61,562 bases of DNA, filler included, from Sphacelaria rigidula (GCA_964200075.2; 6 parts of 6 records of this genome joined end to end with filler, not necessarily neighbours in it), one strand, 5' to 3'. Positions 1 through 42,012 are shown, counted from the whole stretch's first letter. Notes: generated by a model from the sequence alone, not told the origin. Numbers and translations are program-made.

Positions 1-75
1 AGTGTGGGGAAAGCACTGTTTTAGGCTTGAGCCTCATCTCGAAGTTAAACCTCAATTCTCACAATTTGTTGTTAC

Positions 76-1105
76 ATGTTGGTAATCATGGATGATTTGA
101 GCAACTTCGTGGCTTTGGAACCAGTAGCAGCGTGTACTGCCGAATCGACCGCTGCATCTTTGCTGGATTGGTGCAAAACTTTGGGGGTGCCGCGTGTGTG
201 GGTGAGTGATACCGCCACGCATTTCAAGAATGCGATCTTGACCCGTTTGCGAGAGGCATTACACGTTGATCATCGGTTTGCGGTGGCATATTCTCCGTGG
301 TCTAACGGTACGTGCGAGCGCGTGGTCAAGGCAGTAGTTCGTGCCCTTCGCTCTATTCTTCTCGAGCAGCGTCGAGAGGTGACCGAGTGGATGGACGTGT
401 TGCCCGCTGTGCAATGGGCGCTAAATACAGCATATCACCTTCGGTACGATAGTACGCCGTATCACGTGATGTTTGGTGGTGCACCTCGGACGTCTTTCTC
501 TCGGTGTTGGCGTCCTCATCGGCGGGGGAGTGGAACTGAGATGTCTTAGACGATGCGCAACTAAAGTGTGCGTTGCAAGGAGTTCTGGAGTTGCAGGAAA
601 GTTTCCACACGTTCAAGTGCAGGAGCGTGTTGCCGCTGAACGTGCGCGTAGACGTGAAGGGTCTTCGTCGGGGCTGGAATTGCCGAATTTCGAGGTAGGC
701 GATTATGTTTTGTATGCACGCGTGCGTCGCCCAGGAGTACGCCTGAATTGATGGCGACGTGGACTGGTCCGTGGAGGGTGGTTGGTGCTCATCACCCGCA
801 TGTGTTTGAAGTCTAAAACATTGTTTCGGGTCGTGTTCAGACCGCCCATGTAGCTCGTCGGGGTTNNNNNNNNCTTCAACCAGGGTCAATTTCAGATGGC
901 TGGGATTGTTCGCGTGGCAGAGGCAGAGGATCGTTCGTTGATCGTGTTGGTCGACTGGGTTGGTTTTGAAGCTGAGGAGCGTACGTGGGAGCCTTTGAAG
1001 CAAAATTGAGGCCGCTTCGGAATTTCTCAAAAAGAAGTTGCGTAAGGTGCGAGTGACTCGTTCCATTGCTGCTCGCATTACGCGTAAGTTTGGTATTCAC
1101 TTGTG
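76..1105 (+). mobile_element. Ty3/gypsy (chromovirus-type) pol 3' end: integrase core plus chromodomain, with frameshifts and stops
   Basis: ORF 76-549 has rve motifs (LVIMDDLSNF; WVSDTATHF; YSPWSNGTCER; QWALNT..TPY). A shifted frame gives FEVGDYVL..WTGPWRV. After the 8-N gap comes the chromodomain VLVDWVGFEAEERTWEPL. Confidence 0.9.
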
Positions 1106-1185
1106 ACTTGCTCAATCGTTTTGTCGTTATTTTTCTGAATGTCAAGCTTGTTGCTCGATTCTCGTCCAACGCGCTTTGGAGGTGC

Positions 1186-1445
1186 TGTGACGAAATCACG
1201 CCGTCACGTTGAGTATATAGTGATGATATGGATGATGGCTCGGGATCTGTTAGTGATGGTATGGATGATGACATGGACACAAGGGTGATACCCTGATGTG
1301 GTATATGGAGCGTGTATGCCTGGGTGACACTCCAGGATAATAAAATGTGTTGTGAAGGCTGACAACTGAAACCTGAGGCCAGTGGAACTGGGGAGTCCCT
1401 CAACAGCATTAGACGCTGCAGTACTAGCAACTTGCTGGCGTCACA
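1186..1445 (+). mobile_element. 3' LTR (260 bp) of the gypsy element
   Basis: Begins TGTGACG and ends CGTCACA (perfect 7-bp inverted termini). It follows pol and a short purine-rich tract (GGAGG) and contains TATATA and AATAAA. A related LTR start occurs at 10108. Confidence 0.85.
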
Positions 1446-1680
1446 GGTCGAAATCACCGTCGCCGTCCGACGATAGACTGCCGAGTGTAATCACCCTCGG
1501 TGTTTTCGTGATCACGCCGTAAACCACGTTGTTCTGGAGGAAGAGTCCGCCTACGTCGTAAACCTTGTTGTCACGGATGCCGAACTTCACGAACTTACCG
1601 CTTCTCTTGTAGCGCTGAGTTTTGTCGCCGTACTTCATCGACGAGCCGACCACTTCGCTCTTCTTGGTTTGCTTTACCAT
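1446..1680 (-). pseudogene. Virus-like hypothetical ORF, 3'-truncated by the LTR
   Basis: MVKQTKKSEVV..GDGDFD stays open up to the LTR edge, and its stop is supplied by the LTR. It is co-oriented and tightly packed with the SET and ATPase genes. Confidence 0.5.
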
Positions 1681-1722
1681 CGCTATCGCGCTGATTTGAA
1701 CTAATTTATTGATGCTGTGTTA

Positions 1723-2340
1723 TCAACATTTGGAGTATATTTTGGTCCTTTTAAACAAGGTGCCGACATGTTTGTACACTGTGTCGATCAGGTCGCGATA
1801 CTGTTGCTTGCTCGTGATACACGGGGTGTAGCCGCGCTCACTGTAGTCGTTGCCATAGCATGTCAGCACTTCCGTCCCCTTCGGGGGGTCCTTGACTACA
1901 ACGACGTATATTTCTGGAGTTGGCAACTTTTTCACCAGAGAACGTTGGACATCGACTTTGGAGATGTTGTGGTTGCTCACCAATAAAGCGTTCGGCAGAC
2001 AGCCGTCGCTCGCCTCGTTGGTTTGACACGCCAGTGTCTTGAATGCTTCGAGCTTTTCATCTGAGGCAGCCGAGGATCGCCGTCCACGGACAAACCTTCC
2101 GCGGTTGGTTAGTTTACAAACGCCGTCGGGTAATCAGCGGCGATCACGTAGGTGCGATAATTATCTGGGTTTGTTTTGTCATCATCTTCGCTGTCATCAT
2201 CATCCTTGATTGTGATGTCGTAATTCGGAAGGATCGTTCCAGCACTTACTTTTCTGACACAGAGACGCCGTTTCCGCGTTCTCGCCTTGCTCAGATTTCC
2301 TGCACTCGAAAACACCATCCTTCTTTAATACAAATACCAT
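1723..2340 (-). pseudogene. SET-domain lysine methyltransferase, viral type, frameshifted
   Basis: Joined frames read MVFVLKKDGVFECRKSEQGENA/GNGV../RKVSAGTILPNY...YVIAADY..DGDP/LACQTNEASDGCLPNA..IYVVVVKDPPKGTEVLTCYGNDY. These match the SET motifs GxG, (N[HE]xxxxPN) and GxELxxxYG. Confidence 0.75.
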
Positions 2341-2389
2341 AATGTATACGTCCTGACGACATACTTTTTGTTTTTCGGGGAGAAGACTC

Positions 2390-2838
2390 ACGAACTGACG
2401 CCCTTGCACCCGGCCATGATGCCGCTGAGAGACGTCAACTCTTCCAGAGAAGAAGAGGCTATATCTAGTATTTCCTTCGGCATGTCTACGGTGCCCTTTA
2501 GAGAAAGTTTTTTTGCCAGATCGAAAGAAAGAGGAACAGAGCCTTGAATACTTCTGTGAACAGATTGGGGAGGATATCATCGCTGAACTTGTTCTCGTGA
2601 CCCAGTACGACGTACACAAGGGCATCTGCGAACATTGTAATCTCTTGCTTGATAAAAAATTTGATGCAACTTGCCGGTGCTTTCAAAACCTTGGCCAGGC
2701 CGAGGAGGCTCGACGAAAATGCCTGCAGAGACAACATGTAATCCGGGACGGAGTAAAAAGATCTACCGACACTTTTGTGTGCGAGGTAGCACGTCTCGCT
2801 TAGCGTTGCTATGGTTGTTGCAACCACTCGTCTCCATA
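2390..2838 (-). pseudogene. Virus-like hypothetical protein, frameshifted
   Basis: ORF 2498-2827 continues in another frame (LKGTVDMPKEILDIASSSLEELTSLSGIMAGCKGVSS*). Intron-less and packed between its neighbours. No family recognised. Confidence 0.4.
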
Positions 2839-2879
2839 TATAGATACAAATTAGTTAAGTACGAACAGGACTGTGGTCG

Positions 2880-3140
2880 TTACGGTTTGCACAACGAGCG
2901 TGAGAATGGAGAAAACGATGTCTCTTGCAAACGAGACCACGTTTGTTTGCGGCGGTCAAATGTAAACGTGGAGCTCAGTGATAGAAGTAGAGTCATCACC
3001 ACAGATCGTACTAGGACCACAGCCATCAGGATCCCGTTCGTCAGAGTAGATATTGCGATGGACGATACACCACACAGGATGCCGATGATAATCATTTTTG
3101 TGGCCTTGAGCGTTATCTCCGCATCCTGGCTGACCGCCAT
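2880..3140 (-). CDS. Small hydrophobic (about 2 TM) virus-like protein
   Basis: 86-aa ATG ORF with two hydrophobic segments (MIIIGILCGVSSIAI; ILMAVVLVRSVVMTLLLSL), directly downstream of the ATPase. Confidence 0.45.
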   Translation of the reverse strand: MAVSQDAEITLKATKMIIIGILCGVSSIAISTLTNGILMAVVLVRSVVMTLLLSLSSTFTFDRRKQTWSRLQETSFSPFSRSLCKP

Positions 3141-3201
3141 GTTCTCGCGATCGTGTTACAAACGGCCAGCATCTTGAAGTTAAGTTCGCCAATTTTGATA
3201 G

Positions 3202-4046
3202 TTAAATTCGGCAATTAGTGAATGACAAAAGTGCCGTCTTTCGATCGTATCGTGTCGGGATGAGGCCTGTTTTGCAAGAGATACCTGTCCTGAATCGAGA
3301 CATATCTAGCGTCGTGGTATTTCTAAAAATATTTCGACCCGAATCTGAACACACGGTTGGGGTAATTTTGTACCAATTAGCCATAATATTGTCAACGAGA
3401 ACACTCGTCACGATGTTGTTAAGAATCAAGCACCCAGAATCCCTGGTGAATGCATCGAAAGCGTTCTTGAAGTGCACGGGCTTTTCAAACACGCCAAAAA
3501 CGTTCTCGGACAAGTTTCTCGTGACATTTTTGTTGCCCTCTCTAAGACAAATCACTTAGTCCGTGCTGCTCCTCAGCGCGGGCGGTAGCTGCATCACGTG
3601 CTGAATTGCAACTATCAGCGTGATGTCGTAGCGCCATCCATCCATGAAAACAAACGTGAGTATCTGACTCGTCATAACTTCACGGTTTGTAGCCCATGTC
3701 GTCAAGCACGATGACAATACGCAAGTCCGTGTCTTTACCGATTTCTCTAATAATGTTTTTCTGTAGCTGCAGACGTTTCTGCTGCTCAACGATGTCTATG
3801 AGCTTGCCCTCCACGTCTTTCTCGTCAAGCATGAAATAATCCGGGATGTGCCTGCAAAAAAACCTGTTGCTCTCTTCCGTGGCCGAGAAAACACACGCTC
3901 GCGGCACCTTCCACTTGGAAAGGTAGTACCGGAGCTCGGCGATGACAACGCTCTTCCCCGTGTTCCTTTTCTCGATGACGACAGCGTTGCACTTTACCGT
4001 CAAATCGCTTTAGATTTACGTTTACTGAACCCGTCGTTGATGACAT
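3202..4046 (-). pseudogene. A32-like (FtsK/HerA) DNA-packaging ATPase, NCLDV type, disrupted
   Basis: Joined frames: NLKRFD / VVI(E)KRNTGKS (Walker A) / VFSATEESN..HIPD / IVIVLDDMGY (Walker B) / FMDGWRYDIT..QHVMQLPPALRSSTD*VICLRE..LSENVFGVF..F..FTRDSGCLILNN..WYK. This is colinear with the A32 consensus (MNGRH, QY..PP..R.N.DY). At least 2 frameshifts and 1 stop. Confidence 0.9.
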
Positions 4047-4099
4047 GATGATAATATACCTGTTAACATGTACACAATATACGAAGATTTTAGCGAATT

Positions 4100-4677
4100 T
4101 AAATCATCAGAACGTCGTCCGTCACCATCTCGCCCCCCAACGGGCTTTCGGGTAAGGATGACCGAAGCGACTTGTCGTCCGTCACACAGAGACAGCCAAG
4201 TCTTGAGAGCGGACGCAACCAATGGACCGGTTGTTGTGGATTTGGTCGACCGCGTACTGTTCGTGCCGATGGTCCTCGTCCTTGAGATGGACGTCGTGGC
4301 CGTGATGGACGTGGTTATCAAAATACGTAAATTTATTTTCTGTGTTGGTCGCAACTATGAGCGACTCGACCACAATTGACTTTGCGGACCGCCGTGTTTG
4401 TTTTGATCACGACTTTCCCTTCTGGGACCATGTACATCACGCCGTCTTTCGCAAGAACGAAAAGGCTGCCGTCGCAAGGGAAGCCGGGAGCGACGCACTT
4501 GTTGAACATTTGGTGGGTCTCGAGAGAAGAGGACAGGGCGATTTTCATCGCACATCAATCGGTGACGACAACCACGCAGAGGATGATCACCATCGTCGCG
4601 TCCGTGACCAATGAAGCAATGCTCGCGATTTTAGGGTCGGGTTTGGAGGAGTGCTGCCTCATTTTGGCTACAAGCAT
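4100..4677 (-). pseudogene. Virus-like hypothetical protein with N-terminal hydrophobic segment, disrupted
   Basis: ORF pieces 4333-4548 and 4182-4373 join with the upstream MLVAKMRQ..MVIILCVVV. Same strand and packing as the ATPase. Boundaries approximate. Confidence 0.35.
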
Positions 4678-5133
4678 ATTCAGATTACGATGTTCACCAC
4701 AGCGACGACCCGTTCATTTGAAAAGAACGAACTGTCCTTGGATCTTCCAAGGTGCTGACGCTCGCCAAAAAGCGAGGACCTTGGACTTTGGTGATCTGCC
4801 CGAAGGCGATGTTGGTGGTGCCCGAAAGCGTTTTTTTTGTTTTCATTGATCTTCACGCATTCAAAGCCAACCGCCCTGCCCCCTCATCACTCATCTTTCT
4901 CATTCAACTGCTGAAATAAAGACAAAAAAACCCAAGATCAACCGCCCGCAGGTCCACAGTCGAACTATCCTCTGCGCTAATTAGTACATGTGCTCAACCG
5001 ACCCCGACTTCGTCGCACGCGCGCGCTTGCGCCTCTTCTTTTTCTCCTCGGAGGAATTTACAACATCCGCCATTTCTTTTTTCAACAGAAGTTTGCGGGC
5101 ACGTACAAAAACAATTTTGATCCTAAAAATAAA

Positions 5134-5637
5134 ATGGTTTCAACAGGGGCAGCACTGTCCAGCTTTGAAATGTTCATCGACGTGAACATCGATCAAGTGG
5201 CTTCCTTCCTTCTCGACGCCAAGTCCATGGCGGCATTCGCGAGGGTCGGGAGGCGCGACAAAAACGTGGTGTACGCCAGCATCCCGATCGCGATTAAAAG
5301 TTCAAATGACTAAATGAAGAAATTTCAGCGAGATGTACTGAGCGATCTCGCTCAGAACTCGGGCCTGGGGCAGCTGAAAGCTCTCGTCGAGCGCAAGTGC
5401 CGCGTCTACAAGAAGAGAAACAGAGGAGGAATACGAGCCCCCTGGGGAATCCCGTCGCACCCTGAGAGCAGGAGAGGCCTCGAGGTCAACGTACGCCATG
5501 TGAATGACGAAATATCGACCGAGCTGATGTCGCTCGTCCGCTTGACGACACCGGTCAATGCCAGGGGCGGACACAGCTCGTACCACGGGCAACCCGAATA
5601 CGAAATAATTGTCCCGAAAGCCATCCCCGGCGACTGA
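5134..5637 (+). pseudogene. Divergent virus-like hypothetical ORF (one in-frame TAA at 5311, or two abutting ORFs)
   Basis: ATG follows an A-rich leader (TAAAAATAAAATG). The frame continues through TAA-ATG at 5311-5316 to 5637. Confidence 0.45.
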
Positions 5638-5638
5638 T

Positions 5639-7075
5639 GTAAGTTTGGGAAAGGCCAGACGCATCTCTTGGCCTGACCTTGTAGATTTATAGTAGAGTGG
5701 GACCTTGTACAGTCGGCCCAAAAATACATAGCTTGGTTCGCCCGCAATGTAAAGCTTCCTTCCCAACAACATGTTTTTGAGCCGATCGTGTACAGGTCTC
5801 AACAAGGGCCATATGTGAAGTTGATTTGGAAATTCAGTAGAGAACACGTGTCGTGGACCTAATGAGAGCCCGGGTTCTGTCAAGTTTGGAAAAGGCTAAA
5901 AGCATTTCTGGGCTTGAGTTAGTAGATTCTACTTTTAGCCACGGTAGTTTGAAACCTGGGTACAATCGGCCTCAACACATACAGCTTCATTCGCCCGTAA
6001 TGCTATACTTTTTTCCAGCAACATGTGTTTGGGCCGATCGTATACAGGTCTCAACAAGGGTCATTTCTGGTATTGATTGGGAAATTCAGTCGAGAACACG
6101 CACCATGGACCTGATGAAAGCTTGGGTTCTGTCAAGTTTGGGACAGGTCATACGTATTTCTAGGCCTGATTTATTTAGTAGATTCCACTTTGAATCACGG
6201 TAGTTTAAGACCTGGGTACAATCGGCCAAAATGCTCATAGCTTCGCTTGCCCGCAGTGTTATGCTTCCTTCCCAGCGACATGTGTTTGGGCCGATCGTAT
6301 ACAGGTCCCAACAAGGGTCATTCCTGGTATTGATTGAGAAATTCAGTTAAGGACACGCGCCGTGGACCTGATGAGAGCTTGGGTTCTGTCAGTTTGATTC
6401 TGTCAGTTTGATTATGTCAGTTCGGGAAAGGTCAGACGCATCTTCAGGCCTGGGTTAGTAAATTCGACATTCACTTACGGTAGTTTGAGACCTGTAAACA
6501 ATCGCCCCAAATGCACACAGTTTCGTTCGCCCGTAATGTTATGCTCGCTTTTCAGCAACCTGTATTTGGGCTGATCGTATACAGGTCCCAACAAGAGCCA
6601 TTTCTATCATTATTGGAAAATTCAGTCGAGAACACGCGCCGCGGACCCGATGAGAGCTTGGGTTCCGTCAGTTTGGGAAAGGCCAGACGCATACCTAGGC
6701 CTGAGTTAGTAGATTCCACTTCTAATCACTGTTGTTTGGGACCTACATACAACGGACCCAAATGCACATAGCTTCGTTCGCTCGTAATGGTATGCTTCCT
6801 TCCCAATAACATGTATTCGGGCCGATCGTGTTCAAGTCCCAAAAACGGCCATATCTGGTATTATTGGGACCTTCAGCTGAGAACATGCGCCGCGAACCTG
6901 ATGAGAAGTTGGGTCATGTCAAGCTTGGTCCACGCTAGACGCATCTCTAGGCTTGAGTAAGTAGATTCCACTTCCAATCACGGTAGTTTGGGGCCTGTAT
7001 ACAACCGACCCAAATTCACATAGCTTCGTTCGCCCGTAATGTTATGCTTTCTTCCCAGCAACATGTGTTTGGACC
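5639..7075. repeat. Tandem array of about 6 diverged ~250-bp units
   Basis: The blocks GT(C)AAGTTTGGGAAAGGCCAGACGCATC, CATAGCTTCGTTCGCCCGTAATG, GGGCCGATCGTATACAGGTC and GGACCTGATGAGAGCTTGGG recur, with units starting near 5639, 5879, 6131, 6415, 6667 and 6918. Confidence 0.92.
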
Positions 7076-8775
7076 GAAAGTATTCATGTGCAATCGGCCT
7101 AAAGCTTCCGTCAGGGCCTCTAGAATACGAATGGCAATGCCCCTGGACATGCGAATGGTCACCAGAACGCATACATCCTACTTGCTGATTTGAGGTCACC
7201 CTTTCCTCCCTCCCCGACCACGACATGAGAATATCTCCTCTGTAAACAACCTCAACCGGGGGGGCAGGGTTATTTGGCGTTTTAGCCATTTGCGGGCGGA
7301 CTATATGATAATGATACTTCTGAACGCATAATAGATGTCGTGAAAATATCAACACCGTTACTATCCCTAGGATAGTCGGGAGCACCATCATTCGTTTGCG
7401 ATCATTCGTTTGCGGCAGGACAAAACAGTGGATACGACCCCAGGGTACGGCTACTTTCCCATCCATGGAAAAATCATGAGCCCAACCTCCACAGGAGACT
7501 TCACCACTGCATTGAAAATGCTTTCTGTGTTGTCGTACGTGCCATGCATATAATTTTCAACTCTCCTTGATGACGCCTTGAATGCACGAAAAAAGCCGAA
7601 ACAAGAAGGGCAACGTTAGCCCACAAACTGGTCCGGATCAAATAAAAAAGGTCAGGACCGGCCGGTCGTGAGAAGTGGGCCCGCGAGAATTTGACGTGCA
7701 GTAGCACGTAGGTGCCCCTGGGTGCATCGCTTATTTGCAACCCTCGGGTGCATGATGAGTTTTCCTCGGATTGTGGTTGTTTGGTGAAGTGTATAGCGTT
7801 GAGCGCACTGATGATGAGTTCTCCGTTGCATCATTTCAGCCCCTATCCCCTGAGCCGTGGTGTCTTCAGTGCACTCAACGGTAGATTCTTGGTGTTGCAC
7901 GATAATCAGTACAGGATCAGTGTCTTCTTTATGGTCTTCGCCTTGACGACTTTTTGACCGATGACGATTAGTTTTGTATAGTTGGATTCTTTATTCTTCA
8001 TGGGCTCTTGTCATCGACGATATTTGAGGGATAATAATGAAAGTTTTCGCTTCAGTTTCATCATGACTGATGAACAACCTGAACGGCAAAGTCGCGCATG
8101 CGATCGCCAGCCTACACACAATGGCTTATTGCTTGTAGGATCCCATTTTTTTTATTTAGACTTCCGAATCATTAACGACTCATGTATATACTGTATATCT
8201 GGGCACTTGACAGTATCCTTTCCATTGGAATCGCTCGAATGTGGCGGTGGCGCGACGCGAAAAAACCTTGTAGCATCATTTTGACTCTTTATTTGGCTGG
8301 AATCGCTTCCGTCCAGATAGGTATATTTTTCCTGTGAAGCTCTGAGAAGCCAGCGTTTCGTCTTTACTTGATTTTAGACAACATGTGTTTTGGTGATACC
8401 ATTTCGCTTATTGCATTTTACTGGATATTGGGGTGAATTCTGCTTTTGCTTCGAGTACATTTGCTTCCCCTGCTGTGTTCTGCGTGGCGTTATGGAATTG
8501 TGGCTTCACGATGCTCCGTTTGATATCCTGTGCCCACGTCTCAGCGTACCCTTCGATCGTCGGATGTACCGTCATCCGTCTCGACCGCTCTTTATTTGTG
8601 GGGTCGGCATCATGTCCATTTGAGAATCGGAAGCAACGAGATAAAATCGAAAAAATGGGATAACGGTATTAGACAGTCAGCGTGCCATCGCTCTCGACTC
8701 AACACAGTCCACTCTCGGAGAAGGGTTTGAACAAGTCGAGCGTGTTTTGATCTCGCACGCATGTATCTTCCTGTG

Positions 8776-9049
8776 GAGCAATGCTACGGTAGGGATTGCA
8801 CTTTGTGTTTCTGGGTCTCTTTTTTGTAGGAGCCCAAATATATGGGGCTTTCTGTGCAACCCAAATATCCGGGGACCGGATTCCCAGGAACATGGTGTTT
8901 ACACGCAGGGACCTTCCCGTGAGTCGGCATCATTTTCAGTATTTCTCAAGTAAAAATGATACTGATTCTCAAAATGATCCGTTCAACACCCCGAGCAGCC
9001 CCGAGGAACATTTTCGGTAAGAATGTGCAACCCTACCGTGACATTTCTT
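8776..9049. mobile_element. MITE family A (GAGCAATGCTACGGTAGGG TIR), degenerate copy
   Basis: Left end GAGCAATGCTACGGTAGGGATTGCAC; right end GTGCAACCCTACCGTGACATT. Same TIR as 38606-38862. Confidence 0.7.
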
Positions 9050-10107
9050 TTTCCTACCGTCTCTGTTCTGCTGCTGCAGCTGCCGTACATGCGATTTTTT
9101 CATCATGAAAAGCTAGGTGCAATAGTGTTTCCGACTTTTTCAAATATTCATGGGCATCGTTTGCACCGGTTTCTGTACTTCTTCAAATTCGAATCGGCAC
9201 TGTGTTCACTTGGAAATTGCATCGGCAGCATGTCTGAAACGGTCAGCGTGTCTCTCTCGGTTCGAAGCGCACCTCATATTTTGTAAGTCGCTCTCAAAAC
9301 TGGTGAAAACGCTCTCGTCCGGGGTCTTCTGTACCGCTCTGAGACCTGCCGGAAAAGCTCTGAGAACACCAACGGCGACACCTTTCGGCAGGTATGCTTT
9401 CGGGTGTACTTTTCCACCGGTCGCCACCTCGTCACGAATTCTTTCGTATGCTCACAGGTGTATGAAAGCGCTCCCGAAAGTGTGTAACCGTGATGCCAAC
9501 GTTTGGGCTTCACCACAGTTCTTTCTCTTTCAGTTTTCTCAAAAAACACCTTTACACGGTCAGGTTTACCTTCTCTCGCTACTACCGCCAGTAAACATGT
9601 ATCTTGACTGTTGATCCTCTGGGCGTGGCGGCGTGAGCTGCCGAACTCTTTTGTCCCCTGCTTCTCGTCATATTTGCGTTATATCTCGACGTTTTGTGTC
9701 ATATAGCTACTATCTATGTCGTTCTGTTCGACTTTTTTCTGCTCCTTCTTGTCTTCAGCGAGTGTTTCAGTTTTATTTTTCTTGGGTACGTCTATCATGA
9801 GACCACGACTGGACCCCTGGGGGGGTCACTCCAAGTGCGGCCATCAATCAATTCAGTCAATAATGACAAATGACATCTTGGAGCCAAGAAAGGGGCGGAA
9901 GTATTTGAGGACACGTGGCGACGCGCAGACAATAAAGCGAATGTCTCCTCGAAAATGGGGTTCAACATCGCGGTGGGATTCACCCTCCTTTGGATCTTCG
10001 ACATTTCTGCCATGATGGTTTGAAAAACGAAAGCAATTCCGGATAGTCTGTTTCTGTGAGAAGCTAAGTGGGTGCAGCTAGGAGCACCCACCTCATTCGG
10101 TGTACAC

Positions 10108-10179
10108 TGTGGCGAAATCACGCCGACACGATTGAGTATATAGTGGATCCTGGATGATGACCAGGGGACAAGGGCATCC
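10108..10179 (+). mobile_element. 5' part of a second LTR of the same family as 1186-1445, cut by the contig end
   Basis: TGTGGCGAAATCACGCCGACACGATTGAGTATATAGTG versus TGTGACGAAATCACGCCGTCACGTTGAGTATATAGTG. Confidence 0.85.
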
Positions 10180-10279
10180 NNNNNNNNNNNNNNNNNNNNN
10201 NNNNNNNNNNNNNNNNNNNNNNNTTAATTAATTAANNNNNNNNNNNNNNNNNNNNNNNNNNNNNNNNNNNNNNNNNNNN
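10180..10279. other. Artificial 100-nt contig spacer (also 20458-20557, 30736-30835, 41012-41111, 51288-51387)
   Basis: Identical N44-TTAATTAATTAA-N44 at all five sites. The 12-mer puts stops in all six frames. Confidence 0.97.
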
Positions 10280-10477
10280 GATGCAGCGCCGGGCACGGGC
10301 CGACTGAATGCCACCATCAATCAGCCCCCCAAACCCTCGTGCGTGCTATCGCAAAAAAACCCCCCCCCCCCCCCGAAAAAAAAAAAATCACGATATTGCC
10401 TTCCCCGCCCAAACCTTGCTCTCCATTACACTCTCGCTCACGCAAATTCGAATGCATCAATGTGGCTTTGATCGCAG

Positions 10478-12957
10478 ACTCCAGCAACAGATCAAGGCGG
10501 GGCAAGAGCGCGTGCAAGAGCTAGAAGGGCAGGTTGCTTTCCTGGAGCGGCAAAGGGTGGAGGTCTGGGCCAGCACAACGAAAGGCCCGGGTGCTTTAGG
10601 ACGCGCTCCTTCGAAGTCCGCGGGCGGCGTTAATGGTAACAGCGGCGGCGAGCGACTAAGCAGCCGAAGCCGCATGACACCACCACATGCATCAGCCCGC
10701 CGATCTGCAAATGGCGTCACCAAGAGCCGAGACGGACATTTTGAAGCCACAGGTAGGAGAGAAGCAGCCTCTGCCACGGAAGGAGAGCATCACGTTGGTG
10801 GCCATCGTACATGGCGTTCTGCAGGTGTTGCCACCGTGGAGGAACAATGGGAAAGATCCGAGTGGGAAGAGCGGGAAAATCGAAGGACAGTTGAGGAGAA
10901 AGGAAGAGACTCTGGAACGAGGCTAGCGGTAGGGGGGCTGGTTGGTAAAGGAAGTGCTCGTCAACCGTCGCACGAAGGCGCGAGCGGAGAGTGGAGACGG
11001 ACGAATCGGGTGGATGATGATGTAGTGTCTAGGAGGAGCGGAGAAGTGTGTGGTGATCCTCAAGATGTGGCTAGGCGACGCGCCGCCAACGGCCAACCAC
11101 ACTGGGATAAGGACGAGGATCGACCTGCGGGTTGGGGAAAAGAACGGCGCGACATGACATCGTCATGGCGAGCCGATCAATCCGCCTGGCCGCCTGAATA
11201 TCATGCAGATCCGGTTGACCCACGTACTGCTTCTCCGCCAGATCCCCGCCACAACAACGCCGCCGCCGTAGAATTTTCGCAGCAGCCCGGACGGCAGCAG
11301 CGGGAAGACGTCACCACAGCTAGTGCACGGATGTCTCCAACTCCCGCCGACGATCGTTCCCCCGGCGGCGGCGATGATGATGAAAGGGTTGTGGAGGATG
11401 ACGTGCGTATGGCGGAGGAAGGGGACGAGGCGGGAGGCGTGGTGAGCAGCGGTAACCCCCGGTGGGGCGCTCCATGGGAGCGGTCGAACACACCCGACGC
11501 CCTCAAGCACGACAACTATGATCCGATGAGATATAAAACTAACGCCGGGCGGGATCGCTGGGCAGCGGATACAGCCCGTACTTCGGCCGGCGCCGCCGCT
11601 GCTGCCACCCCGTCCGCCGCTGTTCCAAACGCCGGTGACTGGAACGGTGCGGCGAGTTACAACGGTCCTCGTGTTAACTGGGCGCAAGATTATCTCGAGC
11701 CGTCTGAGCGGCGCTCGATGCCGAGTGGAGGGCAGCAGCCACCACCGCCATCATCCTTTTTGCACGATGGCAGTCAGGCGACAGCTGCAGCGGCGGAGGA
11801 GGGCCAGGGCGGGGTGGCGTCTAGACCTACAGGCGCTCGCACGCACCACGTCGTGCGGGTTGATAATGTCGATGAAAAAACGCCATATTCTAATCGCGAT
11901 AGCTCGCACCACTCGTATTCTTTCAATGGTGGCGAGCAGGGGCCATACTCCAACGACCCTGAGGAGCGACCGTACCCGAAAGACATCGGCGATCCCGTCA
12001 GATCTCAAGCAGGCTGGAAGCTGACGCAGAGCGATGGTGGTATTAGTCGCCGGGCTCGAGGTGGCGACAGCCAGCAACGATACAGCACATCTTCCCTTAC
12101 CAACACCCCCGACTCGGACGACAATGACCCGCGAACACTCAAGAGCGACTACCAAGCGCGCGGCGCATATCCACGACCTACCGGTCAAGAAGTCGACGTT
12201 GCAGCAAGCGGACAAAGGGGTGCGTACGACGAGCGGATTTCGCAGGCGGAGGGGGCAGGGGGATCGTTAGCTGCTGGGGCGGCCGCGGCGACGCGCTTGG
12301 AGGCAGTCAGGGTGTCGGCGCCGTCTGGGGTAGGGGGGATAGGGGGGAAGGTGGAGCACGTCCTGCGTGATGGGCGACGGGTGGTGCTGTTTGCGAACGG
12401 AACACAGAAGGCAGGTGGAATATTCGTCTTTTGGTTGGATTTTTGTTCAGGCACACGTTTTTATTTAATCGTGCGTGTGTCAAGGGTGCAGTAGGCGGCA
12501 TCATGCTCGGTGGTTGATTTCGGATCATCCGTCGGTCTAGTCTCTCTCTGTGTCTGTCTGTCTGTCTATCTCCCGCAGTACCCGTTCGTTGATGACGGGC
12601 ACATGAACAACCCAAGACTGATATACTCGTAGCCGTGCGTACGGAGCTGTTACTGTCGCGGCATTTTGTTTGCTTCGCGATGATGATTTGACACAAAAAC
12701 AAAACTACTTGGTGGACATGCGCTCACTGGTCCAAAGGTCAAATGTCCGCTATAAGAACAGAAATAACGCCGCTTGCCTTTCCGTTGATTCGCAGGAAAC
12801 GTCGCCAGACGGAGGGTCTGTGGTGCGCTTCGTAAACGGTGATCTCAAGCGCGTGGAAGGAGGGACGGGGGTCGTGATCTACACGTACGCTGCAGCACGC
12901 ACCACTCACACCATGCACCCTTCGGGCTTGGAAGTGTTCGAGTTTCCCAATGGACAG
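10478..12957 (+). CDS. CENPJ: Centromere protein J / SAS-4-like (Tcp10 C-terminal domain), internal exons 10478-12410 and 12796-12957; partial gene
   Basis: Coiled coil (LQQQIK..LEGQVAFLERQR), long disordered linker, then KVEHVLRDGRRVVLFANGTQK|ETSPDGGSVVRFVNGDLKR..VIYTYAAARTTHTMHPSGLEVFEFPNGQ, the TCP/G-box beta repeats. CAG acceptors at 10477 and 12795; GT donor at 12958. Confidence 0.82.
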
Positions 12958-14877: not shown

Positions 14878-17800
14878 AAAGGGTCTGTTGAAATTTTGGC
14901 CGCCAGAGTGGGTAATCTGGGTCTCAACACTCCTTCTGCACGTGAAAATGATGCCGATTCAGTTGCGAAATTCCCCCTGCTGGCGGTCAAAGGGTTGATC
15001 TTCCGTACAGTTTTAAAGCAATATCAATGAACAGTACCGTTCCGTTCCAAAAGAGATGCCGACCGACAACAGTGTACCGTTTTTTACAAAAGAATTTTCT
15101 TGGCAAAGTTTGCTGTTCTGAAAAATAATCTACTTAGAGAGAAATTACCGCGGCGGCAAAAAAAATCACGCGCTCCGAAGAAATATAACAAAGACCAAAA
15201 GAAATAAAAATAGTAGCTTTCCGATTTTCATGTCTGAACAAGATAACCGTTCCGAATTCATGTCCGAAGAACATACACCCGTTAGGTGCGGCGGCAGCTG
15301 GTACCATACCGTAGCAAATGCTACTAATGTACAGTAAAACATGACGAATTTGCGCCACTCCTTGAGCAAGCATTACACGCTTTTCATGCTTGGTGTTTCA
15401 CCGTGATTGTTATGGGAAAGGGGTAAGGAGGAAATCCGTGTTGACAGGATAGGATGAGAGGAAGGCATCAAAGTAGTGGAACAAAACAGCGCACAACCAA
15501 ATCACCATTGCTCGTCCAAACCCTTGCTTGTTCATACACTCTCTCCTGTTTTTATTTACAGATCATTCGATATATGTTTTGATTTTTTTTTTCCAGTCAA
15601 GTCGTTGCCTTCATCTGTAGTATACCCATTTAATGTAATGTTTGTCATAACTTGATACCTTCGTCCATGTCATACCCATGTTGATGTGATTTTGGTCGTA
15701 ACTCAACTTCCTCCATTTTTCGGCCGGCATGTTTTGATCGATAACCTTGAGTAGACTTGAGTAGAAACCGGCCACAGCCTCAAAGGGTAGTTCAGTATCA
15801 CCCTCTACCCTTCGTGCTAACCGCCCACTACCTGGGACCAACTGACCAACAAATGAAGCAGGGGCACCGTGACGTAACATCGCCCAACGGGACGGCACAC
15901 CGGGAGCTGGCAGACGGCACCATGGAGTGCATACAACCAGACGTTCTACCTCAAAACGCAGCAGTGATTTCGGCTTGATAGGCGTCTGATTTAAGGGAGT
16001 GGAAGGGGCGGCGGGGGGTGAACTCATGCTCTTGCATTCCGTAGTCATAAGACCGTTGACCTCGCATCCCTACAAAATGGGGACGGAGCACACCGAGTTT
16101 TCGCCGGACCAGGCTCGCAATCACCAAGCGCGAAGCGCCGTGATATGTTCGGCGGGTCGTATGAGGGATGAGCTTCGTCCTGCTAAGGTTGTTCGACGCG
16201 AAGCATGCTGATAATCAATCTAGCACATGGATGACGGCATCGAATGAGTTGCTCTGATTGCACTACTTCCAGAGACAGCCACGGGTTACACACTGCCTCA
16301 TCGGTGTCTCGCCATTTCAACACTACGTAGTATGATCATCGCCTTTGCGCGGAGGTGCAGTTCTTCATCCCGCATAACATGATGTGACTCGACCATCATG
16401 GCTACCGCAAAAAAACGCAAGGGGGGGGGGAGGAAGAACGATAACCTGGCTACCTAGCTGGCCTGATTGACAGTGCCCTTGTCAACCAACGCCAACCCGT
16501 CAAGGGTGAGGGGGTACTGGGGGCACGCCGCTCAAGCTTGATATTTCGAAAACGTTGAATTCATGAACTGCGGTGTATATACCGTACTCAGGGATGAACT
16601 ACTGTCAAGACCTGGATGGTGGCGGATGGTGAAAAAATACATCAGTCTGTGTGGAAAGCGGGTACTTGTACTACTTTGCGGGGGGGAGGGGGGTTAGTAT
16701 CGGGCGATGGGATGAGCCCACCACACCGCTCATGGCTGGCCCACCCCTGCATGAGGTAGGCGCCGCCGGTGTGTGAAGATGGAGCCTTCCAGAGAGGTTG
16801 TGCTTCGCCATCGGGGTAAACCACGGTTTCGAGGTCAGCAGTTGAGGTCAGGCCAGGAAGTTGATCCGAACGGTAACTGCAACGTAGCCTCAAGTAACCC
16901 CGTAAAACGTTAGGGCCGAAGGGGTAGATGCGCCCTACACAGGGAAAGGCGTGCTCCTAGACCTTGGTCTAGGGTGAGGGTTAGGGTTGGGGATACTGTC
17001 GGGGCTCGAATGTTTTTAGGCGTACCTCCCACTGATGCTTTGCGAACAGGATCCATGCACTGGAACTGGCAACGCTTGGGCCGGGAGGCTCACAGACAGC
17101 GTGTTCCTCTGTGTGCTGGTAGCATTTGTTGGAGGCCTGACGGCGTCGTGAATTGTGAATTGTCTGGTTTGATCGCGGCAAGCACGAAAGCTGGATGGAG
17201 TGTACGCGATGGGAGGTAGCCGGGGTGTGTGATGTCGTCTTGCCTCCTCGTCCGCGTGTTTCCTTCGATGAGAGTGTTGCGTTCCTGAAAATGCGGAGAG
17301 TTGGCAGTAGAAACTGAAATATTGTACAGTAGCGAAGTATTACGTGATGTCGAGGTGCACGCGGGGAATATGGTCCACACAGTACATACAGGCATGTTTA
17401 GCGCGGCTATGGCCCGTGCACGTTTTTCTTTATTCACCAGTGTGTGTGGGGTTTTCAGAGTTGGGGGCGTTTTGTTTTGTCTCTTGTGTTTGCAGCGTTT
17501 GGGGACAGTGTGTGCTGCGTGGTTGATAATAGATACAGTACGTAGCTCCTCTGCTGATAATACCTGTTCTCAATCGTTGGAAACGTTTTCGTCTGCTTCT
17601 CTCGTCTTTTGTATTTTGTACGTACAAAATGTTTTTTTGCTCTTCAAGTGGCCTTTTGGCAAACAGAAGCACACACCCTGTATTTGTGTAGAGAGTGCCA
17701 CAGATCGTAGCCGTTGTTGTCGTTCGTGATCTACAAGTTTTGAATCGCTTTCGGAAGTTGACGTCGTTGTATATCAGAGAAGATAAGCAAAAAAGGTGAA

Positions 17801-34429: not shown

Positions 34430-36427
34430 GTGCCTACGATGTTGAATAGTGTGCAGCTTCTGTTTTCACATGCTGTAGTCCGATTCCTTCGTCGTTCGTT
34501 GAGGATATGCACCAACCCAGGTTGCGCCATCAACTCGCGACGGGTTTTGCGTCTCTGCATGATAATCCCAGCGAGTTCAACCGCACAGCGCTCGTCCCAT
34601 GTTTGTAACACAGGCAGCAACCTTTGTCTGGACGCCTTCACCACCGCCCTCAACGAGGCTTCCTCAGGGGGAAGGTCGTATTTGCCGACAAAACACTTAC
34701 AGCTGGCGTCACTGCAGCTCTGCATCGCCTGCCGCGGCGTAAGCACTCTGTTGGTGAAATTTGATGGATCTACGCCACGCAGGCTGTGGGCCGATCCCGC
34801 CGAGCAATCTCCGACTGTGACAGCTGGAAGTATGGGTAGCAATGATAACCCCCGAGTGCCTTTATTACGTGCGCACAGTATCGTGTGGACGTTGAGTGCT
34901 AATGCGGCAATCATGTTATGCAAGACCAATCTTTTGTCCAACGTGCGAAACTGGTACTTTGACCGTATGTTTGACCGTAGTCTGGACTATATTATCTGGC
35001 CCCCGCAAGTGAGGAAACTAGTGTTCCGGAGCGATGGTAGTTCAATGCGAGCAGGCTTCAATCAACCCATCACGAAGGTGGTCTGGCCTTCTTCGCTGCA
35101 GCAGCTAACGTTCGGGACAAACTTCAACCAGCCGATCGAGGGTGTGGAGTGGCCTGCGTCGCTGCAGCAACTGAAGTTTGGAGCTGACTTCAACCAGTCG
35201 ATCAAGGGTATGACGTGGCCTGCGTCGCTGCAGCAGCTGACGCTCGATTTTGCCTTCAACCAGCCTATCGCACGTGTGGCGTGGCCTGCGTCGCTGCAGC
35301 ACCTGAGGTTCGGAATTCACTTCAACCAGCCTATCGAGGGTGTGGCGTGGCCTGCGTCACTGCAGCAGCTGACCTTCGATTTTTTCTTCAACCAGCCGAT
35401 CGAGCGTGTGGCGTGGCCTGCGTCGCTGCAGCAGCTGACATTCGGCATTCACTTCAATCAGCCTATCGAGGGTGTGGCGTGGCCTGCGTCACTGCAGCAG
35501 CTGACCTTCGATCTTTTCTTCAACCAGCCGATCGAGCGTGTGGCGTGGCCTGCGTCGCTACAGCAGCTGACGCTCGGAGAATACTTCAATCAGCCGATCG
35601 AGGGTGTGGCGTGGCCCATGTCACTGCGGCAGCTGACGTTCGGATTGAGGTTAAACCAGCCGATCGAGGGTGTGGCCTGGCCTGCGTCGCTACAGCAGCT
35701 GACTTTCGGAGAATACTTCAACCAGCCGATCGAGGGTGTGGCGTGGCCCGCGTCGCTACAGCAGCTGACGTTTGGAGAATACTTCAACCAGCCGATCGAG
35801 GGTGTGGCGTGGCCCACGTCACTGCAGCAGCTGACGTTCGGATTGAGGTTAAACCAGCCGATCGAGGGTGTGGCCTGGCCTGCGTCGCTGCAGCAGCTGA
35901 CGTTCGGAGTTCACTTCAACCAGCCGATCGAGGGTGTGGCGTGGCCCGCGTCGCTGCAGCAGCTGACGTTCGGAGATTACTTTAACCAGCCTATCGAGGG
36001 TGTGGCGTGGCCTGCGTCGCTACAGCAGCTGACTTTCGGAGATGACTTCAACCAGCCGATCGGTGTTGTGGCGTGGCCCGCGTCGCTGCAGCAGTTGACG
36101 TTCGGGGATCATTTCGACCAGACGATTGAGGGTGTGGCGTGGCCTGCGTCGCTGCGGCAGCTGACGTTCGGCGCTGACTTCTGCCAGCCTATCGAGGGTA
36201 TGACGTGGCCTGCGTCGCTACAGCAGCTGACTTTCGGAGATGACTTCAACCAGCCGATCAGGGATGTGGCGTGGCCTGCATCGCTGCAGCAGCTGACGTT
36301 CGGGCATCACTTCAACCAGCCGATCCAGGATATGTCGTGGCCTTTTTCGCTGCAGCAGCTCACAATTGGATACAAAACAACAAGCCCATCAAAGGCGTCG
36401 TGTGATCTGTGTCGTTCAAACGGCTGA
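34430..36427 (+). CDS. Intron-less FNIP-repeat (22-aa LRR-like) protein; start uncertain, 3' end frameshifted
   Basis: 20 exact-length units FNQPIEGVAWPASLQQLTFGxx follow a ~200-aa unique N-terminal region. About 3 further decayed units lie at 36377-36580. Confidence 0.85.
   Translation: MPTMLNSVQLLFSHAVVRFLRRSLRICTNPGCAINSRRVLRLCMIIPASSTAQRSSHVCNTGSNLCLDAFTTALNEASSGGRSYLPTKHLQLASLQLCIACRGVSTLLVKFDGSTPRRLWADPAEQSPTVTAGSMGSNDNPRVPLLRAHSIVWTLSANAAIMLCKTNLLSNVRNWYFDRMFDRSLDYIIWPPQVRKLVFRSDGSSMRAGFNQPITKVVWPSSLQQLTFGTNFNQPIEGVEWPASLQQLKFGADFNQSIKGMTWPASLQQLTLDFAFNQPIARVAWPASLQHLRFGIHFNQPIEGVAWPASLQQLTFDFFFNQPIERVAWPASLQQLTFGIHFNQPIEGVAWPASLQQLTFDLFFNQPIERVAWPASLQQLTLGEYFNQPIEGVAWPMSLRQLTFGLRLNQPIEGVAWPASLQQLTFGEYFNQPIEGVAWPASLQQLTFGEYFNQPIEGVAWPTSLQQLTFGLRLNQPIEGVAWPASLQQLTFGVHFNQPIEGVAWPASLQQLTFGDYFNQPIEGVAWPASLQQLTFGDDFNQPIGVVAWPASLQQLTFGDHFDQTIEGVAWPASLRQLTFGADFCQPIEGMTWPASLQQLTFGDDFNQPIRDVAWPASLQQLTFGHHFNQPIQDMSWPFSLQQLTIGYKTTSPSKASCDLCRSNG
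35057..36376 (+). repeat. 66-bp coding tandem repeat x20 (FNIP units)
   Basis: TTCAACCAGCCGATCGAGGGTGTGGCGTGGCCTGCGTCGCTGCAGCAGCTGACGTTCGG at 66-bp period. Confidence 0.95.
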
Positions 36428-36885
36428 CGTTTGGAAATTGCTTCAACCAGGCTATCTAGGGTTAGCGTGACCAGCGTCGCTGCAGCAGCTGACGTTTAAG
36501 AAAACGTGAACGAGCGCATCCAAGACGTTGCATAGCGTTCATCACTGCAGAAGCTCATGTTGGGAAATGGTTCAACACGCTGCTTGAGGGGTTCTCGTGC
36601 TCGCACAGCCGCACCAGCTGCTTCGAGAACATTGATGCAAACAGCCGACAAATGTGCTGAATGATGTACGATCACCACGCAACGGGAGTTCCCGGCGGTA
36701 GCCAATGGCACTACTGGAGGCACTGCGAGATTGTCTAGCGCTGAAGGCGTGGGTATGGGTGCGGTTGAAGATACAGCGGAGTGTCTGAAGCGGCTGTAAC
36801 GGAGAACTGCAACCGGTACGATTGAACAACGATTGCGGGTTGGCAGGACAAGATATGGTCCCATACCGACGAAGGCAGGGTGAAC

Positions 36886-40925: not shown

Positions 40926-41785
40926 CGAGCAAAGCTACGGTAGGGGTGCACTTTTTCGCGAAATTTTGTCTGGTTCAGGGGCTCCTAACGCTTCTAGACG
41001 CACAAGAATATNNNNNNNNNNNNNNNNNNNNNNNNNNNNNNNNNNNNNNNNNNNNTTAATTAATTAANNNNNNNNNNNNNNNNNNNNNNNNNNNNNNNNN
41101 NNNNNNNNNNNAAGCTCTCCATCGCGATTGATACTGCTTGATACATCTGTACATTGCCTGATGCACACAACACCCAATTATAGTACAGACAGTTTGTACC
41201 TAAAAATAGCTTGGATGAAATTTTCGGTCTTCATCTAAGCCTGCCGTTACAAACATTCGTTGATTTTCAGCAACATGAAGCCACCGTTTCATGCATATGC
41301 AGGACACGTCATTCCTAACCAGCCTCGTTGGTCGTTCTGGAGGCCCAGTCCGAAAAGGGTTAATTCTCGTTTCTCTTTTTGTTGATTTTCGCAAAGGGCG
41401 GTACAAGGTACGTGAGCTTCCTTGTACAGTGATGTAAGAGCGCCACTATAACAAAATCTTTCTACGCATTGCGCAGTTGTTTCTTGTATACGCTTTTATT
41501 CGTGTCAAGCGCTGGTTGGGGTATTTTTTTTGCGGCTTCCACGTACGTCCTTACCGCCCCTACCTTTTCGGTTGTGCATACTGCGTTGTGTTGCAACGAT
41601 GCTGGGCGCGTGCTCACGAATGCCTTCGAGTCAGCTTGTGTGTGTGGCGCTGCAGTATTGTTCCGCTAATTTTTCTTCATCGATCCCCTTTACGAACTTC
41701 ACTCATATGAAAACAATCTTTGAAGTTTTTCTTACCGCGCCATCGCGTCACACCGCGCTCTTTCGTGGAAAACTCGTGTGCACAG

Positions 41786-42012
41786 CCATCACCCTGGGTG
41801 TTATAGAGGAAGCCAAAAGACTGGGAGTCACTCGCCTTTGGCTCCAACCAGGAAGTGAGAACGACGAGGTTCTCTCGCGGGCCGCAGAACTCGATCTACA
41901 ACTCATACACGGCGAGCCCTGCGTGCTGGTCGAGCTAGGCTACTACGCTCCCGGGGGACTGGGTAGCAGTACCGGTGGCGACGCAAGTGGTCGGGTGGAA
42001 GCAGCCCTGTGA
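41786..42012 (+). CDS. CoA-binding domain protein (YccU-like), last exon
   Basis: After the CACAG acceptor: ITLGVIEEAKRLGVTRLWLQPGSENDEV..A....LIHGEPCVLVEL, carrying the W.QPG and C..VE signature. Confidence 0.75.

Follow-up and report, generated by a model that had tools for sequence, protein, structure and literature searches.

Integration into the germ line is a normal part of the latent life cycle of phaeoviruses (Nucleocytoviricota), and endogenous viral elements (EVEs) of phaeovirus origin have reportedly been described in brown algae by Cock in 2010 and by McKeown in 2025. Here we analysed a stretch of DNA from Sphacelaria rigidula (GCA_964200075.2), termed the window, which has 61,562 nucleotides, filler included, and joins six parts of six records of this genome end to end, not necessarily neighbours in it. 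Positions 1447-5067 of the window are very probably a dead fragment of an endogenous phaeovirus resembling EsV-1 (Ectocarpus siliculosus virus 1), embedded in a chromosome of the brown alga.

According to a survey of 72 genomes, these hold 792 viral regions of 2-705 kb, of which 81% measure 2-50 kb, and 67 of 69 brown algal genomes have such regions (10.1101/2024.02.19.579948). A paper of 2008 reported dispersed viral pieces in Ectocarpus (PMC2373305), and another account describes one genome with seven EVEs that range from near-complete to small fragments and have frameshifted core genes (PMC11890097). Transposon insertion is discussed there as a route of inactivation (PMC11890097), and a review of 2026 agrees (PMC12993054). 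The S. rigidula fragment resembles the phaeovirus EVEs of brown algae in being phaeovirus-derived, in its monoexonic genes, in its fragmentary state, in its frameshifted core genes and in its location in a host chromosome; by size it belongs to the 2-50 kb class, and it shows no qualitative difference from them. It is also similar to the small fragments EVE 40-2 and EVE 94 of Porterinema (PMC11890097).

Similarity searches using blastn and tblastn revealed that viral similarity in the window extends from 1447 to ~5067 on the minus strand, with a sharp left edge at 1447. Remnants of six viral genes lie within these 3.6 kb, all on the minus strand (Table 1). The Walker fragment of the packaging ATPase (107 aa) gave five pattern matches in IMG/VR, of which one was confirmed: L001, a contig of 335,593 bp that shares 82% identity with the fragment over residues 1-105. 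The genome of EsV-1 is given with the same length of 335,593 bp (PMC2373305), and the ATPase of L001 is 97% identical to one protein of Ectocarpus sp. 12. In what follows L001 is called EsV-1, and its genes are named by protein length in amino acids (aa).

Alignment of window positions 1-12000 against the 20-kb EsV-1 locus by blastn showed two collinear blocks, namely window 1448-3997 against EsV-1 12544-10007 and window 4079-4610 against EsV-1 8318-7819, both at 68.5% nucleotide identity. Identity by blastn is 68.5% over 2,595 bases (E 0), which, with the joint tblastn E of 2e-112 for the ATPase, puts the similarity well outside chance; a further match of 34 bases sits at 5026-5059. The open reading frames (ORFs) of this EsV-1 stretch follow one another in the order 303, 169, 492, 290, 265, 204 and 675 aa. 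Six of these genes are matched in the window in the same order and orientation, and the 492-aa gene between them is absent. At the site of its absence the blastn blocks pass from 10007 to 8318 in EsV-1 while the window advances from 3997 to 4079, and the EsV-1 492-aa protein found no tblastn match in the window. Gene content and order are thus shared with a phaeovirus genome. Beyond 5067, the window has no similarity to EsV-1 even at E 10; positions 5070-5637 gave no viral or Pfam match, and the plus-strand ORFs at 4990-5310 and 5317-5637 have no Pfam family.

Pfam places the EsV-1 protein of 290 aa in Pox_A32 (32 bits, cut-off 22.8) and, by its AAA_30 and UvrD_C_2 domains, that of 675 aa among the superfamily-1 helicases. 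The 204-aa protein matched SET at 18.3 bits, under the cut-off of 22.4, and the 492-aa protein had a sub-threshold fn3 match. No Pfam family was found for the 265-, 169- and 303-aa proteins.

Table 1. Viral gene remnants and flanking features at the left end of the window
Feature	Position	Strand	Evidence
Retrotransposon-type integrase core remnant	76-549	+	Pfam rve, E 1.6e-4, 22.3 bits (cut-off 32.6)
Very high-copy repeat	900-1445		terminus ...GTCACA abuts the viral segment
Helicase remnant (EsV-1 675 aa)	1447-1686	-	tblastn, residues 1-80, 64% identity, E 5e-27
SET-domain-like pseudogene (EsV-1 204 aa)	1735-2331	-	tblastn, 3 pieces, 50-60% identity, joint E 2e-50
Hydrophobic membrane-protein pseudogene (EsV-1 265 aa)	2391-3131	-	tblastn, 3 pieces, 58-61%, joint E 7e-56
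A32-type DNA-packaging ATPase pseudogene	3218-4046	-	tblastn, 4 pieces, 73-81% identity, joint E 2e-112
492-aa fn3-like gene, site of absence	4047-4119		~1.6 kb of EsV-1 correspond to ~75 bases here
Pseudogene of EsV-1 169-aa protein	4120-4629	-	tblastn, 43% over 172 columns, E 3e-35
303-aa protein remnant	4927-5067	-	tblastn, residues 256-302, 47%, E 5e-10 (against a 1.6-kb sub-window)
Tandem array, unit ~251 bp (host satellite)	5637-7089		Tandem Repeats Finder, periods 252 and 251 at 5707-7077

Every one of the six viral genes is broken or truncated, and none retains an intact ORF. Of the helicase only the first 80 codons are left, and the similarity stops abruptly at 1447. The SET-like pseudogene changes frame twice (frames -3/-1/-3) and contains a single in-frame stop, and the membrane-protein pseudogene likewise changes frame twice (frames -1/-2/-1). 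The pseudogene of the 169-aa protein has four stops in the alignment, a conserved N-terminal half and a scrambled C-terminal half, and frame changes in tblastx. The 303-aa protein is represented by its last 47 codons with one stop; this remnant, also seen by tblastx, marks the right-hand limit of detectable viral sequence.

An earlier note on this DNA had read 1446-5637 as a decayed segment of an endogenous DNA virus with an A32-type ATPase in an algal genome, a reading that is borne out by the homology, the EsV-1 gene order, the ATPase tree and the bridged junctions described below. Its left boundary agrees with the onset of viral sequence at 1447, whereas its right boundary overshoots the viral end at ~5067 by ~570 bases. 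The roughly seven short ORFs, mostly on the minus strand, that it counted are real as fragments of the six minus-strand genes, but those on the plus strand have no viral match. The small membrane protein that it placed next to the ATPase also exists: an 86-aa hydrophobic ORF (2880-3140) is the N-terminal piece of the homologue of the EsV-1 265-aa protein. Likewise, the ATPase motifs that it quoted are all present on the minus strand of 3202-4046, where three-frame translation distributes them over three frames as LKRFD, KRNTGKS with SATE and VLDD, and LPPALR with WYK.

Further analysis of the ATPase revealed pieces in frames -1/-2/-3/-2 that together cover residues 8-287 of the EsV-1 protein at ~80% identity overall. 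Frame changes lie near 4000, 3690 and 3360, in addition to two in-frame stops, and no single uninterrupted frame of ~260-300 codons remains. Moreover, the Walker A motif reads EKRNTGKS, in which the first glycine (G38) is replaced by glutamate, so that the intact pattern GxxxxGK[ST] is lost; among the 22 intact relatives of alignment A1, at least 90% keep this glycine. The Walker B motif (VLDD) is present. The arginine R149 of the N-G-R-H block, invariant in 22 of 22 aligned sequences (alignment A1), is replaced by tryptophan, with DGWRYD in the window against NGRHYD in EsV-1. As both G38 and R149 are replaced, the ATPase would be crippled even without the frame changes. Compared to the FtsK-HerA ATPases of the family PF04665, the TGKS core, the VLDD motif and the conserved C-terminal blocks are recognisable in the window, but with three frame changes, two stops, G38E and R149W this copy cannot encode an enzyme. 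It is a pseudogene of the Pox_A32 (PF04665) family rather than a working member, and its descent from the family appears clear.

Homologues of the ATPase agree with this descent. A word-indexed search among longer proteins returned 31 homologues at E<=1e-5 among 125 candidates, and 31 of 31 carry PF04665. The window ATPase pieces, scored separately and not as one joined protein, gave no PF04665 match. The top matches are P0092 (86% identity), a protein of Ectocarpus sp. 12 (83%) and one of Ectocarpus sp. 4 (79%), and the homologues that are named come from these two Ectocarpus assemblies. An exhaustive search of representative proteins found 91 at E<=1e-3 and nine at E<=1e-10. One of them, the 50-aa protein P0003, is 100% identical to the pseudogene at 3680-3829; as it stands in a public protein collection, gene callers must have annotated at least one piece of the pseudogene as a protein.

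A profile scan of IMG/VR confirmed 560 relatives among 600 pattern matches, of which 80 were kept. Among these 80, identity to the EsV-1 ATPase is 59% for L002, 47% for L003 (a contig of 154,641 bp) and at most 42% for the rest. The local gene order of the window and EsV-1 is shared by neither L002 nor L003, and L003 has none of the EsV-1 neighbours within 6 kb of its ATPase. L002, a metagenomic viral contig of 6.6 kb, has at 442-1868 a SET-like gene directly upstream of the ATPase, which differs from the layout of EsV-1, where the SET-like gene is downstream with the membrane-protein gene between them; L002, a relative of the phaeoviruses, is thus arranged differently around this gene.

A frame-repaired phylogenetic tree of the ATPase was built from 55 rows using IQ-TREE with the LG+C20+F+G4 model and posterior mean site frequencies (PMSF), the window ATPase being read through with X at its breaks. 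The rows comprise the window, 14 of 81 viral loci, all 30 proteins P0092-P0121 and 10 of 91 representatives; 67 loci, which are further distant members of the nucleocytoplasmic large DNA virus (NCLDV) group, and 81 weaker representatives were left out. No named sequences of FirrV-1, kelp viruses, Polinton-like viruses (PLVs) or virophages are among the rows, and A32 is the sole marker gene. The smallest well-supported clade that contains the window has nine rows (support 100/99), among them EsV-1, P0093 from Ectocarpus sp. 12 and P0098 from Ectocarpus sp. 4. This clade is nested in a clade of 28 rows (97/100), outside which lie the L003 group and other marine NCLDV contigs. On the A32 gene, its only marker, the window thus groups with the reference phaeovirus, which together with the EsV-1-like gene order is the outcome that the earlier note had itself named as a refutation, one of low novelty. 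The end branch of the window measures 0.18 against 0.03-0.09 in its closest neighbours (two to six times as long), as would be expected for a decaying copy.

The divergence from EsV-1 points to two layers of change. For the ATPase, the nonsynonymous divergence (dN) is 0.119 and the synonymous divergence (dS) 1.63, which is saturated, giving a dN/dS of 0.07 over 274 codons; over all 931 aligned codons dN/dS is 0.17. The low dN/dS indicates that most of the divergence is old and arose under selection, from virus to virus, and that the disabling changes are a later overlay. Given the nucleotide identity of 68.5% and the saturated dS, the donor was not EsV-1 itself but a distinct phaeovirus, of another strain or species. 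Overall, the locus and EsV-1 have the same six genes in the same order and orientation, with ~80% amino acid identity in the ATPase and 68.5% nucleotide identity. They differ in that no window copy is whole, the ATPase and the 169-aa gene have no 492-aa fn3-like gene between them, the fragment measures 3.6 kb compared to 336 kb, and dS is saturated.

Contigs of public sequencing runs were compared with positions 1407-5700. In X1 (study P1), one contig of 6,456 bases covers this interval with 0 differences and 0 gaps; in X3, from another sample of study P1, four overlapping contigs do so with 0 differences; and in X4 (study P2), one contig of 4,644 bases covers it with 7 substitutions and 0 gaps. 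These contigs bridge both viral ends, cross the 1446/1447 junction by 40 bases and reproduce the frame changes. Run X5 yielded scattered short contigs at depth 1-5, from which nothing was concluded. Since the contigs span both ends and repeat the frame changes, the locus is not a chimera and did not arise from indel errors, and samples of two studies share the same dead allele. The chimeric contig that the earlier note had considered is therefore excluded.

On the left, the viral fragment abuts the very high-copy repeat at its ...GTCACA terminus. The summed contig word depth of this repeat in X1 is ~10^4-10^5, compared to 67 over the viral part, and loose contig ends at 1429/1430 show that other copies of the repeat reach the same ...GTCACA and then diverge. 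The repeat is probably the end of a retroelement that cut the helicase gene. The integrase core remnant further left, to go by its Pfam match, would be mobile-element sequence of the left flank and not viral. Lying beside this remnant, the repeat probably belongs to a retroelement family that ranks among the most abundant in the genome. On the right, unassigned single-copy sequence separates the viral end from the satellite array, whose copies are 74-80% alike, with ~75% identity of shifted copies in a self-blastn of 5637-7089.

The host character of the surroundings is supported by a CoA_binding_2 exon at 41530-42009, which has 16 homologues. All seven of the named ones are brown-algal, with 70-90% identity, and come from Ascophyllum, Laminaria, a record labelled 'Undpi1', Scytosiphon, Choristocarpus and, twice, Ectocarpus sp. 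12. Together, this exon, the bridged junctions and the transposon and satellite flanks place the fragment in a brown-algal chromosome.

Based on these results, we propose as the most likely history that the germ line acquired an integrated phaeovirus, a relative of EsV-1 and not EsV-1 itself, and that this provirus was later inactivated and broken up. The end of a high-copy retroelement would have cut the helicase at codon 80, while the other side of the fragment would have come to end in unassigned sequence, followed by satellite. Since then, the remnant may have drifted without selection, gathering frame changes and stops and losing catalytic residues of the ATPase. As far as its sequence tells, the fragment has no present viral function and offers the host no usable intact ORF.

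Elsewhere in the window, a tblastx comparison of the whole 61.5 kb with 84 viral loci (752 kb, mostly ATPase neighbourhoods) gave viral matches only at 1001-4500; the other matches were FNIP repeats at 34501-36500 and isolated ones of ~35 bits at 11001-11500 and 15001-15500. The ten longest other ORFs gave one sub-threshold Pfam match (Tcp10_C) and none to a viral family. This match (the centriolar G-box, 29 bits, cut-off 36) lies at the C-terminal end of a low-complexity ORF of 728 aa at 10308-12494 on the plus strand, likely an exon of a host gene for a centriole protein. At 34430-36427 on the plus strand, an intronless ORF of 665 aa contains 19 FNIP repeats (Pfam FNIP, 418 bits), through which it shares 55-56% identity with repeat proteins of an IMG/VR giant-virus contig of 617,453 bp. 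We considered this ORF as a part of the viral element and rejected it, as its matches are to that contig and one contig of a giant-virus metagenome-assembled genome (GVMAG), none to EsV-1. In addition, paired runs of 44 N, 12 bases apart, recur every ~10,278 bases (10180-10223 and 10236-10279, then from 20458, 30736, 41012 and 51288), and N also occur at 866-873. The N runs look like an artefact of masking or formatting and may hide short pieces of sequence.

Several points weigh against the assignment to an EsV-1-like provirus. L001 was identified as EsV-1 by the matching length of 335,593 bp and by the ATPase, not by the name of the record. None of the ten ORF fragments of the window reaches a Pfam cut-off, the best match being that of the Walker A-B piece to AAA_22 (E 0.14); because no fragment passes Pfam by itself, the family assignment rests on intact relatives. 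As for the assemblies, X1 possibly derives from the window's own source sample, so that X4 alone counts as independent. MCP and PolB, the usual markers for placing a donor in a subgroup of Phaeovirus, are missing. The insertion of a retroelement is likewise a proposed step, since the window starts inside the repeat and its far side is not visible. Finally, the window shows no gene for an integrase, a capsid or a polymerase, as the earlier note had found for capsid and polymerase, in a check of limited power without reference sequences; it is for this reason that we only infer a provirus from a piece of 3.6 kb. Among the key nucleocytovirus (NCV) markers sensu Denoeud et al. (MCP, PolB, D5, SF2, VLTF3, A32 and integrase), only a broken A32 was found, with limited power for MCP and PolB, in contrast to the several markers of a complete or partial provirus.

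The fragment might instead be a piece of a larger and still competent provirus, which continues past the retroelement or persists as dispersed, recombining pieces. The helicase breaks off precisely where a high-copy repeat ends, beyond which the remaining virus may lie, and dispersed pieces were proposed for Ectocarpus by Delaroque and Boland (PMC2373305), an idea discussed in PMC11890097. However, all six genes are broken, the core packaging ATPase has also lost conserved catalytic residues, the right side runs into non-viral sequence and satellite, and the remaining 56 kb gave no other viral match in the tblastx comparison, itself of limited power. We therefore consider this explanation very improbable: it is plausible, though less likely than not, that more viral DNA in a decayed state lies to the left, but competence is not plausible.

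Equally improbable is that the host has co-opted the fragment, for example to produce small RNAs that act against incoming phaeoviruses, or has domesticated it as a gene. Its retention in the sample of the second study, with only 7 substitutions in 4.3 kb, would fit such a use, and co-option of EVE fragments is raised as an open question in PMC11890097. The lack of an intact ORF and the long terminal branch, as expected under drift, argue against it, and low polymorphism within the species is equally expected of a neutral single-copy locus. A bolder combination, which we rate as very unlikely though slightly less so, is that the donor was an uncatalogued and unisolated phaeovirus genotype, to go by the saturated dS, the ATPase identity of only ~80% and the lack of the fn3-like gene, and that the dead fragment, kept between repeats with near-identical sequence in samples of two studies, now contributes to a defence against incoming relatives that works through small RNAs or chromatin.

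More doubtful still is the suggestion of the earlier note that the fragment represents an undescribed lineage outside the phaeoviruses, such as a small NCLDV relative, a PLV or a virophage. That suggestion drew on ORFs which the note did not recognise; the EsV-1 neighbours of 265, 169 and 303 aa indeed have no Pfam family, and the window has no visible capsid or polymerase gene. Nevertheless, the unrecognised ORFs are all homologous to genes that adjoin one another in EsV-1 and follow their order there, and the ATPase is ~80% identical to that of EsV-1 and sits within its clade (100/99), whereas the ATPases of the other viral contigs reach only 59% (L002), 47% (L003) and at most 42% identity to that of EsV-1. 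Membership in the PLVs or virophages was rejected on the ATPase nested in the EsV-1 clade, in a tree that had no named reference of either group, and on neighbours that are all EsV-1 genes. Last, although long-read assemblies are prone to indel errors and misjoins occur in high-copy repeats such as the left flank, it is hardly conceivable that the frame changes and junctions are artefacts of sequencing or assembly, or a chimera, in genes that are really intact, since contigs derived from short reads of three samples (S1, S2 and S3), which belong to two studies, show 1407-5700 again without gaps and the in-frame stops and the changes of G38 and R149 are substitutions, not indels.

Altogether, the endogenous EsV-1-like fragment of S. 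rigidula is ordinary, one more phaeovirus fossil of a kind that almost all brown algae carry. Its importance hardly extends beyond annotation, and it opens no new question. In annotation, it should be masked or marked as a cluster of pseudogenes derived from a phaeovirus, lest pieces of its ORFs pass for host genes. As a junction-resolved and dated fragment, it could add to surveys of how integrated giant viruses are inactivated and broken up in brown algae, here apparently with the aid of a retroelement.

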